Source: an uncultured Planctomycetia bacterium (GTDB lineage: Bacteria; Planctomycetota; MHYJ01; WSZJ01). Taken from it: 64,000 nucleotides of DNA. Within the stretch, counting starts at the first letter, position 1. The number at the start of each line of letters is the position of its first letter. The notes under the pieces are model-generated. The model was not told where the DNA came from. It was given only the letters and a program-made list of their open reading frames with translations, and did not search any database. The position numbers were made by a program, and so were the translations under genes. The DNA is taken from the NCBI GenBank assembly GCA_963706735.1, contig CAVPNQ010000096.1, positions 2,368 through 66,367 on the forward strand, in the 5' to 3' direction. Of this stretch, positions 2,637 through 63,990 are shown piece by piece.

Positions 2637-3571
2637 ACGCACCCGCGCCTGCGCTGCCGCTCGTCCTCTTCGAGCACGTCACCCGCTGGTACGGGCAGGT
2701 GGTGGCGCTTCGAGACGTCACCATCCCCATTGGCGCCGGGATCATCGGGCTGCTCGGCCCGAACGGGGCGGGGAAGACGACGTTCATCCGCGTGCTCACC
2801 GGGACGATGCCTCCGTCGCAGGGGCGCGCCCTCCTGTTCGGCGAGCCGGCGTTCGGGTCGCCGAACCTCTACCGCCGCATCGGCTACTGCCCCGACCACG
2901 ACAACTTCTTCGAGTTCATGACCGGCCGCGAGTTCGTCGAGACCCTCCTGGGCGTCCACGGCTACGGTGGCGCCGACCGGCGCGCCCGCGCCGCGCGCGC
3001 CCTCGACCGCGTCAAGGCGGCCGACTTCGCCGACCGGAAGATCTACACGTACTCCAAGGGCATGCGGCAGCGGCTCAAGATCGCGCAGGCGCTCGGGCAC
3101 GACCCCGAGCTGCTCATCCTCGACGAGCCTCTGAACGGCGTGGACCCGCTGATCCGGCGCGACGTGATCGACCTCGTGAAGGAGCTGGGCAAGGAAGGGA
3201 AGTCCGTGATCGTCTCGAGCCACGTCCTGCACGAGGTCGAGGCGATGACGCCGAACATCGTCCTCATCCACAAGGGGCGCGTGAAGGCCTACGGCAACGT
3301 GCACGAAATCCGCGGGCTCATCGACCGCCACCCGCACTCGATCGAGCTCCGCACGCCGCGCCCCCGCGACCTGGCTGCCCTTCTCGCCCGCCAGCCCGAC
3401 GTCTCCGAGCTCGTCATCGCCGAGGGACAGGTCACCCTTCGCACCCCCGCCCCCGACCGCTTCTATTCCGCCCTCCCCGCCCTCCTCCTCGAGTCCGGCA
3501 TCGACGTCCACGAACTCCACAGCCCCGACGACAACCTCGACGCCGTCTTCCGCTACCTCACCGAGGCCTGA
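2633..3571 (+). CDS. ABC transporter ATP-binding protein (second ATPase of the module)
   Basis: GTG at 2633 overlaps the upstream TGA (GTGA). Walker A GPNGAGKTT, signature YSKGMRQRL, Walker B LLILDEPLNGVD. Confidence 0.85.
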   Translation: MNAPAPALPLVLFEHVTRWYGQVVALRDVTIPIGAGIIGLLGPNGAGKTTFIRVLTGTMPPSQGRALLFGEPAFGSPNLYRRIGYCPDHDNFFEFMTGREFVETLLGVHGYGGADRRARAARALDRVKAADFADRKIYTYSKGMRQRLKIAQALGHDPELLILDEPLNGVDPLIRRDVIDLVKELGKEGKSVIVSSHVLHEVEAMTPNIVLIHKGRVKAYGNVHEIRGLIDRHPHSIELRTPRPRDLAALLARQPDVSELVIAEGQVTLRTPAPDRFYSALPALLLESGIDVHELHSPDDNLDAVFRYLTEA

Positions 3572-4458: not shown

Positions 4459-5450
4459 GCCGGAGGCTCGCCCTTCCCCTTGAAAAAACCGGCCGCCCCT
4501 TCGCGCGCCGCCAGCGCCACCCCCAGCCCCACGATCAGCGCGTCCGACAGCCTCTGCACCGCCGCGTACGCCGCCGCTTCCGGCGCCCCGATCCCGATCA
4601 GCGAGAACGTCCAGACGACGCCGCTCTCGAACACGCCGAGCCCCCCGGGCGTGACGTGGAACGCCAGCACTACCTGAGTCATAACGAAGATGAGTGCCAT
4701 CTCGTCGAAAGGCGTCGCCCGGCCGAGAAAGTGGAAGAACACAAGCGGCTTCAGCACCACCAACGCGAGCGGCCCGCCGGTGAGCAGAAGAGCTGCCCCG
4801 AAGGCCGCCCGGTGGTCGCGGAATGTCTCCTGGATCTTCCCCTCGGTGTCCGCAGCCCACGCGCGGAGCCGCTCACCGCGCTTTCCCAGCACCCGCAACA
4901 CCCCGGACGCCAGTGGCCACCTCAGGACAAACGCGGCGAAGACCACGAGGAACGCCACGAGGAGGCCTGCGGCGACTCCGGTGGCCGTCCATTTCAGCCC
5001 GCGCGGCAGGTCGAACCGCCAGACCATCGTGGCGGTGCAGACCAGGATGGCGACGAGGAACCCCGTGAACTCGGCGAATTTGTTCGAAATGACCGTCGCC
5101 GCGACGTCGCGCGAGGGTAACCCGAAGCGCCGGCTAATGTGCCAGATCCGCAGGGGTTCGCCGCCGAGGTACATCGAGGGGGCGAGGTAGGCGAGGGAAT
5201 TGCCCATGAGGAACGATGCCAGGGTGGCCCGGAAGGGGATCTTCCAGCCCCTGGAGCGCAGCAGGGCGTGCCAGCCGACCGCCTGGAGCGCGAGGATGAG
5301 AAACGACCAGCCCGCGAAGGTCGCCACGCCGCCGGGACCGATGCGCTTGAGCACGGCCCGGGTTGCAGGCCAGTCCAGGCGCGTGGCCAGGAATGCCAGC
5401 AGCCCGAGAGCCAGAAGGACCGACAGGACTGCGAGGAGGCGCTTGCGCAT
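4455..5450 (-). CDS. flippase-like / lysylphosphatidylglycerol-synthase TM-region family (UPF0104) membrane protein
   Basis: 331 aa and polytopic. The N-terminal pattern RLLAVLSVLLALGLLAFLATRLDW...LLRSRGWKIPF is typical of the UPF0104/LPG_synthase_TM family. Confidence 0.6.
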   Translation of the reverse strand: MRKRLLAVLSVLLALGLLAFLATRLDWPATRAVLKRIGPGGVATFAGWSFLILALQAVGWHALLRSRGWKIPFRATLASFLMGNSLAYLAPSMYLGGEPLRIWHISRRFGLPSRDVAATVISNKFAEFTGFLVAILVCTATMVWRFDLPRGLKWTATGVAAGLLVAFLVVFAAFVLRWPLASGVLRVLGKRGERLRAWAADTEGKIQETFRDHRAAFGAALLLTGGPLALVVLKPLVFFHFLGRATPFDEMALIFVMTQVVLAFHVTPGGLGVFESGVVWTFSLIGIGAPEAAAYAAVQRLSDALIVGLGVALAAREGAAGFFKGKGEPPA

Positions 5451-37603: not shown

Positions 37604-37970
37604 GGCGAAGGGCGCGTCGGCAGCGCCGGCGGTTGCGTGCCGCGATCAATCAGGGATTCGATTGGAGTGGTCGGAGTGCTCTTACTTCGTGCCCAGTTCG
37701 CGTACGAGATGGCCACACAAATGCACCGAACTACCGGAAAGGCATTGATCGAGCTCTTCGGGAAGTTGGGGCTTTACAAATCAGCGACTCCGAGCCTAGA
37801 CCAAAGCGCACCATCAAGCAGCAGTCTGTTAGGTGAGGTGTAGGTAACTTCGAGCACCCCGTCCTATGGAGAGCGCCTACGTACCATTGCGCGCCATTTT
37901 TTGTTGAAAAAGTCTTGCCACGTGCAGTTGTGCATGTACCATCCCTGCATCAACACAGGGAGGCAATCCG

Positions 37971-38429
37971 ATGGACCGAGTCAAGATCGCAGAAACGCTG
38001 TTCGTGGCAGTGGGTGAGGCGAAGGCCGAGCGCGAGCGCCTGTTGCCCCAGCTCAAGGCGATCAACGAGCAACTCAACCAGCTCGACGCAGTAATCGCGG
38101 CCGGCGACGCCTACCTGCGTGGGTTCAAGGCCATCCCGGACGCGGCCCCCATCGCCGCGGCGGCAGAGAAGACGTCGGCGACCCAGCCGACGGGCGAGCA
38201 ACCTCGTGCGATGCTCGGAAAGGGAGAACTCCCGCGGATTGTGAGGGCACTCTTGGCCAACGGCAAGGAACTGACGATCCCCGAAATCGTCCGCGACGCG
38301 CGCATCGCTTTCGGCAAGGCGCTGTCTTCTGGAAGCCTAAGGACGATGCTCAATCGACAGAAAAAGACCGGCACGTTCATGCCCGGGGCCCGGGGTTGGA
38401 AAGTCGTTCCGAGAAAAGAAGGAGCGTAG
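37971..38429 (+). CDS. hypothetical protein (N-terminal coiled-coil, C-terminal winged-helix-like segment), first gene of the low-GC patch
   Basis: Good SD gggagg 7 nt upstream of the ATG. Local GC is visibly lower than the flanks. The segment LPRIVRALLANGKELTIPEIVRDARIAFGKALSSGSLRTML resembles small HTH/wHTH modules. Confidence 0.6.
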   Translation: MDRVKIAETLFVAVGEAKAERERLLPQLKAINEQLNQLDAVIAAGDAYLRGFKAIPDAAPIAAAAEKTSATQPTGEQPRAMLGKGELPRIVRALLANGKELTIPEIVRDARIAFGKALSSGSLRTMLNRQKKTGTFMPGARGWKVVPRKEGA

Positions 38430-38440
38430 CCAATAAAAAA

Positions 38441-38456
38441 GCCCCGTCGCCGGGGC
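38441..38456. terminator. short GC hairpin flanked by an A-run
   Basis: aaaaaa-gccccg-tcgc-cggggc, located between the stop at 38429 and the tRNA at 38471. Confidence 0.35.
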
Positions 38457-38470
38457 TCAAGACTGAGGTC

Positions 38471-38558
38471 GCGTGCATGGCGGAATCGGCATACGCAGCG
38501 GTCTTTAAAACCGCGGCTCCTTGGCGGGAGATTGAGGGTTCGACTCCCTCTGCACGCA
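38471..38558 (+). tRNA. class II (Leu-type) tRNA with anticodon UUA, a predicted ochre (UAA) suppressor
   Basis: Manual fold: GCGTGCA-TG-GCG-GAATCGGCATA-CGC-A-GCGGT-CTTTAAA-ACCGC, a variable arm of about 18 nt, then GAGGG-TTCGACT-CCCTC-TGCACGC-A. The anticodon is positions 38505-38507 (TTA). The D-arm is near-identical to bacterial tRNA-Leu, and the discriminator is A. Confidence 0.7.
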
Positions 38559-38566
38559 TCGAGGTT

Positions 38567-38661
38567 GCTGGCATGGCGGAATTAGCAGACGCAGCCGACT
38601 TGGGATCGGCGGGGGTATCCTTGACCGGGGCCCCGTACGGGTGCAAGTCCCGTCGTCAGCA
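38567..38661 (+). tRNA. atypical 95-nt Leu-type tRNA-like gene with anticodon UGG (possibly a pseudogene or non-canonical tRNA)
   Basis: Fold: GCTGGCA-TG-GCG-GAATTAGCAGA-CGC-A-GCCGA-CTTGGGA-TCGGC, a 26-nt variable region, then ACGGG-TGCAAGT-CCCGT-CGTCAGC-A. The acceptor has 6/7 pairs, the T-loop has G at position 55, and the variable region is over-long. The flanks cgaggt/acctcg extend the stem and are followed by cttttt. Confidence 0.45.
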
Positions 38662-38819
38662 CCTCGCTTTTTCACAGAACGTAGAAGCGATGGCCATCTA
38701 ATCGCCGCTGCATCGACATGTCAAGAAGATCTCTTGCCGCGCTGCGTCAACTCCTCGGCGCGCCAGCCTGATCACCTTTAGGAGTTTATTTCAAATCCGC
38801 TTGCCGGCGCGCCCAAGCC

Positions 38820-39400
38820 TGAAGCTGCCCCCATCTTTTGGAAGGTGACTATGCAGTGATTTAGGCAAAGTCGCCGTCTGAAACGTTTGGTCGGTCATCT
38901 GTCATCGGTCAGAGGCGGGGGAAGCACGCCGTCGAGTTCAAGGCCCGGGTGGCGCAGAATGCGGGGCCCGGACGCAAGACTCTTGGCGATCTGGGGGCGG
39001 CCGCCGGGTGCATACGACGGTAATCGCGGGGTAGAACCGGATACTCCTCGATGCGGCGCCGCATCCTTTCGCCCGAGGTGTCTCAGTTAGAGGGCAGTCG
39101 CGGGGCGGATATCATGGCGCCTCTGTACGAGCACACCGGCCCGTTCAAGATGTTGCTGGACGGCCAAAGAATAAGCTCTGATCGGCGAGATGCGACAGAA
39201 GCGCGCCTGGATCGAGCCGGGTTACTCGAAAATAGCCCTCTCGCGGTAGTGCCGGCTGTCCGGCCCGCGCGGTCGAGCTACTACTATGTGCCGATGGCTA
39301 CGGAAAGCGCGTCGTATCTACGTCTGAGGAGGGCGGTCCCGTACGCTCGAACGGATGCGTACAGCTGGATCTTGACCGAGTGGCCAGAACAGAGTCCTGG
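38820..39400 (+). pseudogene. decayed IS3-family transposase (orfA plus 5' part of orfB) with a possible left inverted repeat
   Basis: tgaagctgcccccatc at 38820 resembles IS3/IS407-type IR ends. Translated fragments AVEFKARVAQNAGPGRKTLGDLGAAAG, LYEHTGPFKMLLDG, IEPGYSKIALSR*CRL and RSSYYYVP match the conserved orfA/orfB N-terminal regions, but they are spread over frames with TAA/TAG stops. The fragment is truncated before the DDE domain. Confidence 0.65.
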
Positions 39401-39474
39401 GCCGGATGGGTTCAAGTGTTCGCGTGGGCGGGTGGCGCGAAGCGCTCGACACTCCGTATACTCCGTCACCAACA

Positions 39475-40761
39475 ATGCCACACCTCCAACAAAGCCTCTT
39501 CGGTGAGACCCAGCCTCTTTCAACGCGGCCAAAGAAGGCGGATACCTCCTCAACGTTCGCCGGGAACACCAAGCTCCCCGTGCATCGCTGGTTTCGTTTC
39601 AGCCCTGGATTCTCGGCGCCATGGGCCGAGTCGGTCATTCGAGATGCAGGAGCAACCCGCGTCCTGGATCCGTTCGCCGGGTCGGGTACCACGCTCCTTG
39701 CTGCAGAGGATGTCGGAGTGGAAGCCATCGGGGTAGAGGCTCATCCGTTCATATATCGCGTCGCTTTCGCGAAGCTGTTTCGTCGTTCTGACCCGGAAGA
39801 TTTCCTCGCGCGAGTCCGAAAAATTCGTTCCTCCGCCGCGCGGCGCAAGGGATCCAGTGAGGGGTACCCGTCGCTCGTAGAGCGGTGTTACCCGCCGGAC
39901 GTGCTTGCTGCACTGGATGCGCTTCGCGCAGCGGTAGAGGACTCTCGCGATGATTCAGCAGCATGGCATCTCTCCTGGATGGCGCTGGTGTGCATCTTGC
40001 GGATGTGCTCCCCGGTGGGAACGGCCCAGTGGCAATACGTGCTGCCCAGCAAGGTGAAAAAGCGCACGGCAGAGCCCTTCATGGCGTTCGATTCGATGAC
40101 TCAGGGCATGGCCGCGGACATGCGAACGGTAAGGTGCGCCGGGCCCCGAGCCCGTGTACTCGCGGGTGACGCCCGAAACCTAGCTGACGTGCCGGACGGC
40201 TGGGCCGATCTCGTCGTTACCTCGCCTCCGTATCCCAACAACTACGACTACGCTGACGCGACACGGCTTGAGATGTGTTTCTTCCGCGAAGTAAATGGCT
40301 GGGGGGATCTCCAAGAAACGGTGCGCAGGCTCTTGGTTCGAGCCTGCACGCAACATGTCCCGGAGCGAGCCGTGAATCTCGGCGAAGTGCTCGCCGCGCC
40401 CGAGTTGGCACCCATCCGCAAACCACTCACCGAGGTCTGCGAACAACTCGCCGAAATCCGGAAGACGAAGGGCGGGAAGAAGACCTACCACCTCATGGTC
40501 GCGTGCTATTTCCACGATCTTGCGCGAACGTGGCAGGCACTCCGTCGCTGCGCCGCTCCCGGCGCGCGCGCGTGCTTCGTCATCGGGGATTCAGCTCCTT
40601 ACGGTGTCTACGTCTCGGCCGTGGAATGGTTGGGTGAACTGGCGCTCGGCGCCGGATTCAGGACTTGGGAGTTCGAGCGGACGCGGGATCGAAACGTAAA
40701 GTGGAAGAATCGAAAACACCGCGTCCCGCTTTGCGAGGGGCGACTTTGGGTGAAAGGCTGA
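39475..40761 (+). CDS. SAM-dependent DNA methyltransferase (N6-A/N4-C type; motif I before motif IV)
   Basis: ATG at 39475. Motif I VLDPFAGSGTTLLAAE, motif IV LVVTSPPYPNNYDY, and a C-terminal FVIGDSAPYG. Followed 3 nt later by a nuclease-like gene. Confidence 0.75.
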   Translation: MPHLQQSLFGETQPLSTRPKKADTSSTFAGNTKLPVHRWFRFSPGFSAPWAESVIRDAGATRVLDPFAGSGTTLLAAEDVGVEAIGVEAHPFIYRVAFAKLFRRSDPEDFLARVRKIRSSAARRKGSSEGYPSLVERCYPPDVLAALDALRAAVEDSRDDSAAWHLSWMALVCILRMCSPVGTAQWQYVLPSKVKKRTAEPFMAFDSMTQGMAADMRTVRCAGPRARVLAGDARNLADVPDGWADLVVTSPPYPNNYDYADATRLEMCFFREVNGWGDLQETVRRLLVRACTQHVPERAVNLGEVLAAPELAPIRKPLTEVCEQLAEIRKTKGGKKTYHLMVACYFHDLARTWQALRRCAAPGARACFVIGDSAPYGVYVSAVEWLGELALGAGFRTWEFERTRDRNVKWKNRKHRVPLCEGRLWVKG

Positions 40762-40764
40762 TCG

Positions 40765-41628
40765 GTGGCTACCTCCCCGACACACAGGTTCGGCCAGATC
40801 ATCGGCGATGTTCTCGAGGCGGCGCTAAATGAACCGCTTTCGGAAGTGGCGAAGCGACACGGGCTGTACCTCGACTGCAAACGCCCGCGCGCAGCTCGAG
40901 GTGGAAAGTCGAAAGTCGGATGGGATGACAACAAGGGGAACCGGCACGACTTGGATTATGTCCTAGAGGCGGGTGGAACAGACGCTACCGTTGGACGGCC
41001 GAAGGCATTCATCGAAATCGCGTACCGCCGCTATACGAAGCACTCGCGCAACAAGTCCCAAGAAATTCAAGGCGCGATCACTCCGCTCTGCGAAACGTAC
41101 GCACAGGACCACCCGTTCATCGGCGGCGTGTTGGCCGGCGTCTTCACGGAGGGATCGCTTACCCAACTTCGCTCTCACGGATTTGACGTGCTCTACATGC
41201 CGTTCGACAGCATCGTCAAGGCCTTCAAGGTGGTCGGGATAGACGCGTACTTTGATGAGGAATCGGAGGATTCTGAGGTGCAACGCAAGGTGGACAAATG
41301 GAATCGTCTCCCCGCGAACGCCACAGCAAAGGTCGGGGCAGAGATGCGCAAGGTCGAAAGCGCCGCGTTTGCCAAGTTCGTGACTGGGCTGGAGGTGGCG
41401 CTCAACCGTTCGGTCACTTCGGTTTTCGTGCTGGCCTTACACGGCCAAGCGAAGGAGGTGACCACTGTCGAGTCCGCCATTGCCTTCATCGACGGGTTTA
41501 ACGAAGCGAGGGCGGGTGGAAAGTTTGTGAGGTTCGAGGTAAATGTCCGCTACTCGAATAGAGACGAGATTCGCGGCACGTTCGAGTCAAAAGTAGAGGC
41601 CATCAGGTTTCTGCAGAGCCTTGTCTAG
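40765..41628 (+). CDS. putative restriction endonuclease (PD-(D/E)XK-like), partner of the methyltransferase
   Basis: GTG start 3 nt after the MTase stop. The segment NRHDLDYVLEAGG...KAFIEIAYRRYTKH resembles a D...E-x-K nuclease core. No other family recognised. Confidence 0.5.
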   Translation: MATSPTHRFGQIIGDVLEAALNEPLSEVAKRHGLYLDCKRPRAARGGKSKVGWDDNKGNRHDLDYVLEAGGTDATVGRPKAFIEIAYRRYTKHSRNKSQEIQGAITPLCETYAQDHPFIGGVLAGVFTEGSLTQLRSHGFDVLYMPFDSIVKAFKVVGIDAYFDEESEDSEVQRKVDKWNRLPANATAKVGAEMRKVESAAFAKFVTGLEVALNRSVTSVFVLALHGQAKEVTTVESAIAFIDGFNEARAGGKFVRFEVNVRYSNRDEIRGTFESKVEAIRFLQSLV

Positions 41629-63906: not shown

Positions 63907-63990
63907 GGCGGAGTGGCGGAACTGGCAGACGCAACGGATTCAAAATCCGTCGGGCTCACACCCGTGAGGGTTCAATTCCCTCCTCCGCTA
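63907..63990 (+). tRNA. tRNA-Leu (anticodon CAA)
   Basis: Fold: GGCGGAG-TG-GCG-GAACTGGCAGA-CGC-A-ACGGA-TTCAAAA-TCCGT, long variable arm CGGGCTCACACCCGTG, then AGGG-TTCAATT-CCCT...CTCCGCT-A. G1:U72 is a wobble pair. Confidence 0.85.

Follow-up and report, generated by a model that had tools for sequence, protein, structure and literature searches.

A tRNA gene with a leucine-type body and an ochre anticodon in a planctomycetal genome, and its relatives carried by IS1595-family transposons

Bacterial tRNAs whose body and anticodon belong to different amino acids are known in very few forms, namely allo-tRNAs, tRNAProX and SelC*-type tRNAs, and neither Leu-type tRNAs nor bona fide transposon cargo are among them. 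Here we describe such a gene, tRNA1, which combines a Leu-type body with the anticodon UUA and lies at positions 38471 to 38558 of the plus strand in a 64,000-nucleotide stretch, hereafter the window, of contig CAVPNQ010000096.1 from an uncultured Planctomycetia bacterium. The gene is intact and, judged from its sequence, comes from a family that is carried as transposon cargo. The nearest precedent is provided by the allo-tRNAs of Acidobacteria, Clostridia and Proteobacteria, for which roles in missense or nonsense suppression and/or as regulatory RNAs have been put forward (Mukai et al., 2017; PMC5389517). Like the family described here, they are class II-like, join a body of one identity to very diverse anticodons that do not match it, UUA among them, and lie near transposon-related and toxin–antitoxin genes; the active ones are toxic when induced in Escherichia coli. 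Next comes the tRNAProX family (tRNAProX/tRNAProA) of Streptomyces and Kitasatospora, in which the identities of body and anticodon are likewise mixed and a dedicated neighbouring gene is present (PMC10404621; reviewed in PMC11415595). With classical ochre suppressors and those of recoded phages, tRNA1 has in common an anticodon, UUA, that reads UAA (and UAG by wobble) and an association with mobile elements. The classical ochre suppressors of E. coli arose by point mutation of tRNAs for Tyr, Lys, Gln or Glu.

ARAGORN called five tRNA genes across the window, among them tRNA1 as a tRNA-Stop with anticodon tta at 38471-38558(+). The Rfam model RF00005 matched this gene over its full length with 56.4 bits (gathering score 29, E=1.7e-9) and flagged no non-canonical pairs, a score within the range of the window's three ordinary tRNAs. 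Read directly, the gene has a 7-bp acceptor (GCGTGCA/TGCACGC), an anticodon arm GCGGT-CTTTAAA-ACCGC, a variable region of 19 nt with a 5-bp stem and a T-arm GAGGG-TTCGACT-CCCTC, and the resulting cloverleaf (−36.4 kcal/mol) comes close in stability to the minimum-energy fold (−36.8 kcal/mol). The anticodon loop runs C38503 T T T A A A38509, so that positions 34–36 are TTA at 38505-38507; as RNA (CUUUAAA) it has the form expected of an ochre suppressor loop, with an anti-UAA triplet in a 7-nt loop, U33 and a purine at position 37. The D-arm, GGCGGAATCGGCATACGC, is Leu-type and is matched by that of the host tRNA-Leu(CAA) at 63907-63990 (GGCGGAACTGGCAGACGC). It contains G10-C25, C11-G24, G12-C23, G13.A22, A14, A15 and G18G19 (TGGCGGAATCGGCATACGCA), and the variable region ends in T, that is, U48 to pair with A15. 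The discriminator is the A at 38558, and CCA is not encoded, as in the host tRNA genes of the window. The class II Leu-type cloverleaf and the UUA anticodon that had been reported in the preliminary description therefore stand, ARAGORN, Rfam and direct reading agreeing on both the anticodon and the coordinates. Neither tRNA1 nor a second copy immediately downstream (tRNA2, anticodon UGG) has a Leu anticodon (NAG or YAA); both are thus tRNA-Leu by body only, and not isoacceptors by anticodon.

Relatives were sought with a DNA pattern that required the Leu D-arm, the loop CTTTAAA and GGTTCRA. Matches were found in five viral contigs and in 49 of 185,579 species genomes; ten of them, actinobacterial or deltaproteobacterial, have an 8-nt loop, three lie in tRNA arrays, and the rest share the 7-nt loop of the window gene. 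At about 30 of the 7-nt-loop loci the tRNA is followed, within 20–30 nt, by a ribosome-binding site and a gene for a protein of ~130 amino acids (aa), in which alignment shows a coiled coil at the N terminus and, at the C terminus, a winged helix that contains the motif (T/S)V(S/G)SLLSRLK. Pfam returned weak MarR-type matches for this protein. Since the first search had fixed the anticodon, a second was anchored on the neighbouring protein and was blind to the anticodon. It recovered nine viral and 71 metagenomic loci with 56 unique tRNAs, to which ARAGORN assigned the anticodons UUA (29 sequences), UCC (14), UGG (3), UGC (2) and, once each, UGA, GGA, ACC, GCC, CCA, CCC, UCA and GUC. None of these 56 has a Leu anticodon. 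Both UGG and UCC occur on several different backbones, which indicates that these anticodons were acquired repeatedly, and the window pair represents two of the recurrent types (UUA and UGG). The earlier remark that the loop of tRNA1 is one substitution away from that of tRNA-Leu(UAA) is literally correct, but misleading, as the family is systematically non-Leu, with UCC, UGG and UGC as examples of its sense anticodons. Its theme would be mis-decoding by a Leu body, which extends beyond stop-codon read-through.

Two groups of pattern matches differ from the 7-nt-loop family. The 8-nt-loop genes (loop CUUUAAAA) are Leu-type tRNAs found in metagenome-assembled genomes (MAGs) of Solirubrobacterales (loci L008, L009, L010, L013, L017, L024, L031, L033 and L046) and at locus L036. 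They have a perfect 5-bp closing stem, are read by ARAGORN as 'ttaa' and are conserved in about ten species-level MAGs; four of them (L009, L013, L017 and L024) have a tRNA-Met ~3 kb away, and several pairs of loci have kilobases of flanking sequence in common, with no transposase nearby. The gene has the appearance of a chromosomal tRNA-Leu(UAA) whose loop contains one additional U, which raises the question of its mode of decoding. The other group, from Firmicutes, Thiomargarita and Clostridia MAGs (L038, L042 and L048), consists of Leu-type UUA tRNAs with the anticodon stem NAGGA/TCCTN, two of which (L038 and L042) lie within tRNA arrays beside Met, Asn, Gly or Cys tRNAs. These candidate ochre suppressors seem to constitute a lineage of their own.

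The family set assembled from genomes, metagenomes and viral contigs comprises 93 distinct Leu-bodied class II tRNAs. Cultured carriers are Roseovarius salinarum N53, Cognatishimia sp. MH4019, Rhodovulum marinum DSM 18063, Mesorhizobium helmanticense CSLC115N, Sphingomonas horti MAH-20, Sphingomonas sp. SRS2, Acidicapsa dinghuensis 4GSKX, Dyella flava DHOC52 and Rhizobacter sp. Root404. A search of phage and plasmid records with the family protein gave no matches; a Sulfitobacter plasmid bears a related IS1595 element that has no tRNA. Across the 93 sequences, the scored pairs of the acceptor, D, anticodon and T stems are canonical in 98–100% of cases, with one to six pair types per position. 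The exception is the closing pair of the anticodon stem, 27:43, which is canonical in 31% and mostly G·A or A·A. The outer stem pairs covary, and the three innermost G:C pairs are invariant. A73 is present in all 93, the T-loop is TTCRANN in 92, and the anticodon arm has, in every member, a 7-nt loop with U33 and a purine at 37 on a stem of at least four pairs. The base at position 37 varies with that at position 36: it is A in every loop except three of the four UGG loops, where it is G.

The same elements often contain a second, tRNA-like gene of ~75 nt, class I in form, in which the acceptor, D and T arms are kept and the anticodon arm has decayed to odd loops. It lies ~460–510 nt downstream of the Leu-type tRNA (for example at 1602-1676 of L002, and in L053 and L078); ARAGORN reads its anticodon, among others, as GCU, ACU, CGU, AGU, CGC or CCG and also reports 6-nt loops, CCA is often absent, and the gene may be an RNA-processing signal and not a decoder. 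Since the anticodon arm of the class I gene has decayed and that of the Leu-type gene is intact, the Leu-type anticodon stem-loop appears to be under selection. As far as sequence can tell, this contrast is the best available argument that the Leu-type anticodon stem-loop is used.

Most of the family tRNAs lie, beside the coiled-coil/winged-helix gene, within IS1595-family transposons of 2.0–3.7 kb. The ends of these elements are 24-bp terminal inverted repeats, GGCGATTGTATATTTGACAAACCC, which were identified by comparing loci for shared segments with fixed ends and had been missed by a simple inverted-repeat search. Target-site duplications of 8 bp were found in ~18 loci (for example TAAGGTTA, TAAATTTG and TTCGACAA). 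In most loci an IS1595-family transposase gene (PF12762+PF12760) is convergent and downstream, and in others an IS1-like transposase (PF03400) takes its place; by tblastn, one or the other was detected in 72 loci. Upstream of the tRNA, more than 55 loci have a divergent open reading frame (ORF) for an acidic protein of ~50 aa, KFKEAARxLE(T/C)DDDxxRFxxxLxKLVKxKP (for example in L022, L134 and L002), which has no matches in Pfam. The tRNA promoter of the sphingomonad elements overlaps with an inverted repeat, TTGATAGC-N5-GCTATCAA, an arrangement that suggests auto-repression. In Acidobacteria (loci L020 and L023) and a Kofleriaceae MAG (L016), the tRNA(UUA) adjoins IS1-like or SWIM-DDE transposases.

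The linked transposases are intact, and in nearly all loci their genes have no in-frame stops, on which ground we rejected a transposase that depends on the suppressor; the few stops that do occur are either situated in fragments or not cognate to the anticodon, as in L128, where a tRNA(UCA) accompanies an in-frame TAA. A private code with codon avoidance was also rejected, since the genes of UCC-type elements keep GGA and GGG, and the LSRLK motif appears under standard translation in elements of all anticodon types. The transposase genes of the tRNA-bearing IS1595 elements mostly stop with TAG or TAA and seldom with TGA (by hand count roughly 19, 11 and 2, respectively, in UUA-type elements), whereas the adjacent regulator gene prefers TGA. 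In L053, a 25-nt stretch at the 5′ end of the tRNA (3268-3292) is 80% complementary to the segment at 5012-5036 that encodes the CPHCG zinc-ribbon stretch of the transposase, probably by chance.

With these features in hand, the family can be set against the described systems. Allo-tRNAs have an 8/4 or 9/3 acceptor/T-stem geometry and Ser identity (or Ala, with G3:U70), whereas all 93 members of the present family have the canonical 7/5 geometry and a Leu-type D-arm with A73. An 8/4 alternative fold of tRNA1 was ruled out, as U8 faces C65 and an eighth acceptor pair is thereby precluded; position 3:70 is G:C in tRNA1 and T:A in tRNA2 (GCTGGCA/CGTCAGC), in neither case G:U. The discriminator typical of Ser tRNAs is G73. 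The tRNAProX genes are class I, join a Pro body to anticodons for Asn, Thr or Ala, lie beside an isoform of prolyl-tRNA synthetase (ProRS) and are not transposon cargo; the present family, by contrast, has a Leu body and no synthetase gene nearby, its neighbours being the winged-helix protein and a transposase. Recoded phages read their own in-frame stops, whereas the transposase and regulator genes of the family contain no such stops and the same body also occurs with sense anticodons. The relatives have the hallmarks of IS1595 elements, that is, a zinc-ribbon plus DDE_Tnp_IS1595 transposase, terminal inverted repeats and 8-bp target duplications. Siguier and colleagues are said to have noted, on defining the IS1595 family in 2009, passenger genes of uncharacterised function, and we found no report in the literature of tRNA genes as IS1595 cargo.

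tRNA1 itself is 80–82% identical to family members of other phyla, against 70% to the host tRNA-Leu(CAA), and its variable arm has the string TCCTTGGCGGGA in common with the sphingomonad elements. Its closest relatives are cargo of IS1595/IS1-type transposons, which bears out the mobile-element origin proposed in the preliminary description. Upstream of tRNA1, on the same strand, an ORFan of 152 aa (37971-38429; G+C content at third codon positions, GC3, 0.77) encodes a putative regulator of the tRNA genes. AlphaFold places a helix at residues 2–54 with a predicted local distance difference test score (pLDDT) of ~90 and, at low pLDDT, helices at 86–96, 103–114 and 120–133 and strands at 134–139 and 142–147. 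The model points to an N-terminal coiled coil, a disordered linker and a C-terminal winged helix of three helices and a β-hairpin, the same architecture as that of the family protein. The family motif is loosely matched (SSGSLRTMLNRQKK). The gene order is reversed relative to the canonical elements, and is that of L016, in which a coiled-coil/winged-helix-like gene lies upstream of tRNA(UUA). No homologues of the 152-aa protein were found among 5.8 billion clusters or 1.84 billion representatives, and it has no matches in Pfam, NCBIfam or PADLOC.

The preliminary description had presented tRNA1 as a single gene, which was not borne out: it is the upstream member of a tandem pair, and tRNA2 (38567-38661, plus strand), a degenerate Leu-type class II tRNA-like gene, starts 9 nt downstream of it. 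ARAGORN called tRNA2 as a tRNA-Pro(tgg) of 97 nt at 38567-38663(+), and RF00005 gave it 38.4 bits against the same gathering score, with one mismatched pair flagged. Its loop, CTTGGGA, specifies the proline anticodon UGG (38601-38603), and the Leu-type D-arm and A73 are retained. The defects are an A7-C66 mismatch, a D-loop with AG in place of GG, so that G18 is missing (AATTAGCAGA), and a T-loop, TGCAAGT, that is the sole non-TTC T-loop among the 93 family members. The variable region, at 26 nt, is the longest of the family (13–19 nt in the others), and the minimum-energy fold is more stable than the cloverleaf by 4.6 kcal/mol. This copy is probably inactive or poorly active. A direct repeat on the plus strand (38465-38516 and 38561-38612, spanning 38465-38612) is 75% identical over 52 nt with a spacing of 96, and both units include a 6-nt leader, GAGGTY; the repeat indicates that the pair arose by tandem duplication.

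We propose, with a probability of roughly one half, that tRNA1 is a mobile-element-derived, repressor-limited ochre suppressor that inserts leucine, its charging and decoding being steps that we infer. The ORF and both tRNA genes would be transcribed from a promoter at about 37915-37942, and the 152-aa protein would limit transcription of this unit. The tRNA would be released by RNase P and 3′ processing, and its end completed by the CCA-adding enzyme of the host. Leucyl-tRNA synthetase (LeuRS), for which the anticodon is of no account in bacteria, would then charge tRNA1 with leucine by way of A73 and the Leu-type D-arm/A15:U48 core, and low-level decoding of UAA as leucine, and of UAG through U34 wobble, would follow. 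The LeuRS of E. coli recognises A73 and elements of the tertiary core and does not use the anticodon, and in E. coli tRNA-Leu the combination of A73, a Leu-type D-arm and U48 is sufficient whatever the anticodon; an ochre suppressor with U34 reads UAG as well as UAA. An indirect sign of decoding may be seen in the stop codons of the regulator gene that is co-transcribed with the tRNA. This gene ends in TAA in 7 of 51 UUA-type elements and in 12 of 28 elements with other anticodons (Fisher p=0.006; p=0.024 after crude collapsing, without phylogenetic correction), the mean GC3 in this comparison being 0.58 and 0.61, respectively.

Several observations weigh against this proposal. The 152-aa ORF itself ends in TAG, which an ochre suppressor with U34 can read, and TAA and TAG together end 18 of 30 host genes, so that efficient suppression would be costly. 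In UCC-type elements in which both genes are present, 13 GGA and 36 GGG codons occur among 193 Gly codons (~95 and ~90 among ~1,072 in UUA-type elements; all sums made by hand). GGA and GGG are thus not avoided, which argues against strong mis-decoding by those relatives. Furthermore, CCG is the commonest Pro codon in the window ORFs (30 per 1000) and may be read by a Pro-box anticodon with U34. Taken together, the lack of GGA/GGG avoidance, the TAA and TAG stops and the common CCG imply that any activity is weak or tightly repressed, which fits the operator-like repeats and the degenerate UGG copy. Charging may also be less specific than proposed: U35, A36 and A73 are determinants for tyrosyl-tRNA synthetase, and G35, G36 and A73 for ProRS, so some Tyr charging of the UUA copy or Pro charging of the UGG copy is conceivable. 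At the level of the locus, tRNA1 has no visible promoter of its own, and a hairpin stands between the 152-aa ORF and the tRNA. The winged helix of the 152-aa protein matches that of the family weakly in hhalign (E 0.0088, probability 4.6%), and, unlike the IS1595 elements of its relatives, the window copy has neither an IS1595/IS1 transposase nor terminal inverted repeats (up to 8 mismatches allowed), nor were the acidic ORF and an 8-bp target duplication found in the window. At best, we take the window copy for a derivative that was stranded or assembled independently, in which an IS3 insertion and restriction-modification genes may have replaced the rest of the element.

That tRNA1 is a decaying pseudogene of the host tRNA-Leu(UAA), or that its anticodon stems from a base-calling error at 38506, is very improbable. 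Its loop does lie a single base from the Leu(UAA) loop, the adjacent UGG copy is visibly degenerate, and the host tRNA-Leu(UAA) lies outside the window, which precludes a direct comparison. Against this, the stems of tRNA1 contain no mismatch and its score resembles those of the window's genuine tRNAs, and a Logan assembly of run ERR12036780, which may share its reads with the window, is identical to it (100% over 17,190 bp spanning tRNA1). Moreover, the CTTTAAA loop is found on the same body in 64 other distinct sequences from several phyla, about half of them from the search that required the loop and 29 from the anticodon-blind search, so that a substitution error is very unlikely, and the strong compensatory variation across the family reveals purifying selection on the fold. 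A role other than decoding, in which the tRNA fold serves the adjacent mRNA as a processing (RNase P/Z punctuation) or stability module, or acts as a promoter cassette, a cofactor or an att-like site, and the anticodon is irrelevant to translation, deserves more weight, and we consider it unlikely. In the canonical elements the regulator gene has its ribosome-binding site within 20–30 nt downstream of the tRNA and the operon finishes with the second tRNA-like element, which resembles tRNA punctuation; codons that the tRNA would misread are not shunned in the genes of the same element; and the link to IS1595, IS1 or SWIM-DDE transposases is more constant than that to any single cargo protein. 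A neutral loop, however, should have decayed as in the class I gene, and the loop length, U33, purine 37 and stem pairs are kept in all 93 members, with position 37 tracking 36. A73, the GG of the D-loop and the TTC of the T-loop are also retained, and the TAA-stop bias is hard to explain without decoding.

A further alternative, rather unlikely in our judgement, differs from the suppressor reading in purpose, the chemistry being identical: the Leu-bodied tRNAs would be conditional proteotoxic effectors, silenced by the winged-helix repressor until phage infection, stress or loss of the repressor, for example, leads to de-repression, to the insertion of Leu at stop, Gly, Pro or Ala codons and to growth arrest, in the manner of an abortive-infection or addiction-like transposon cargo. 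One quarter of the family has Gly anticodons and others have Pro, Ala, Ser, Trp or Asp anticodons, at whose codons Leu would be very damaging, and the inverted repeat over the sphingomonad tRNA promoter fits tight auto-repression. Induced allo-tRNAs that insert Ser at Leu codons killed E. coli (PMC5389517), and the window copy lies in a defence-type island adjacent to a restriction-modification pair. On the other hand, an antitoxin that is only a repressor would not support post-segregational killing, because a lost gene makes no new tRNA; the proteins have no PADLOC match; and the commonest anticodon, UUA, is the least toxic choice in TGA-rich hosts.

In the window, the island, which is small and foreign, reads from the 152-aa coiled-coil/winged-helix gene through tRNA(UUA) and its degenerate UGG duplicate to an IS3-like remnant and the restriction-modification pair. 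A σ70-like sequence on the plus strand at 37915-37942, TTGCCA-16-TACCAT, found by consensus match only (one site against 0.4 expected), is a candidate promoter for the ORF–tRNA–tRNA transcript. The hairpin between the ORF and tRNA1 (38439-38458) is G+C-rich and has its T-run on the minus strand; as there is none on the plus strand, it need not stop plus-strand read-through. Downstream of the tRNAs, six-frame translation reveals, at approximately 38850-39400 on the plus strand, a stop-broken transposase remnant with the fragments ...EFKARVAQNAG... and ...SRSSYYYVP..., which, judged from its motifs, we take to be IS3-like; a candidate for its left end, TGACTATGCAGTGATTTAGG, lies at ~38850, and the remnant abuts the start of the methyltransferase gene. 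The restriction-modification pair is complete and belongs to the same low-G+C island as the tRNAs. It consists of a Type II DNA methyltransferase (39406-40761, plus strand; PADLOC MTase_II 9.7e-143, Pfam N6_N4_Mtase) and a Type II restriction endonuclease (40765-41628, plus strand; PADLOC REase_II 3.6e-64). The G+C content around the tRNAs is 0.60–0.63, against ~0.68 elsewhere in the window, so that the lower-G+C patch, the insertion sequence remnant and the restriction-modification pair noted earlier are all present.

The 30 confident ORFs of the window end in TGA (12), TAG (11) or TAA (7). The seven include three of the four genes (stops at 697, 15326 and 6800) that had been cited as examples of TAA as a genuine stop in this host, a view with which these counts agree. 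The extensions that would follow C-terminally from TAA in the window genes range from 11 to 222 codons and are patternless, and a programmed extension was accordingly rejected. A TAG share of 11 in 30 is high for a genome of ~68% G+C. In the same ORFs the codons TTA (0.3 per 1000), CTA (0.4 per 1000) and CCA (1.2 per 1000) are nearly unused.

Beyond the window, a broader reading of the family is possible, if doubtful: transposons of the IS1595/IS1 superfamily may carry a compact, repressor-controlled 'mis-decoding cassette' with, as effector, a Leu-charged tRNA whose anticodon was repeatedly re-targeted to UAA, GGA, CCA, GCA, UCA, UGG, UGA or GAC. Just as tentatively, the tRNA of this cassette might be a programmable translational poison or read-through switch that serves defence, addiction or stress-induced diversification of the proteome, with the window holding a domesticated two-tRNA version. 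We know of no bacterial precedent for an RNA effector of this kind. In the full-text literature, subscription journals not being covered, we found no description of transposon-borne or Leu-type mismatched tRNAs, and a 2024 review of natural mistranslating tRNAs includes no Leu-type or IS-borne family among those covered. A widespread family of Leu-bodied tRNAs that have the wrong anticodon and travel on transposons has thus apparently escaped description. Its occurrence in cultured strains makes its function directly testable. Should the tRNAs prove to be charged and in use, stop suppression and Gly-, Pro- and Ala-to-Leu mistranslation would be spreading horizontally between bacteria on mobile elements. 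This would bear on how the genetic code changes, on how cells tolerate or exploit mistranslation and on new mechanisms of defence and addiction, and the family could supply ready-made, orthogonal-looking suppressors for synthetic biology.

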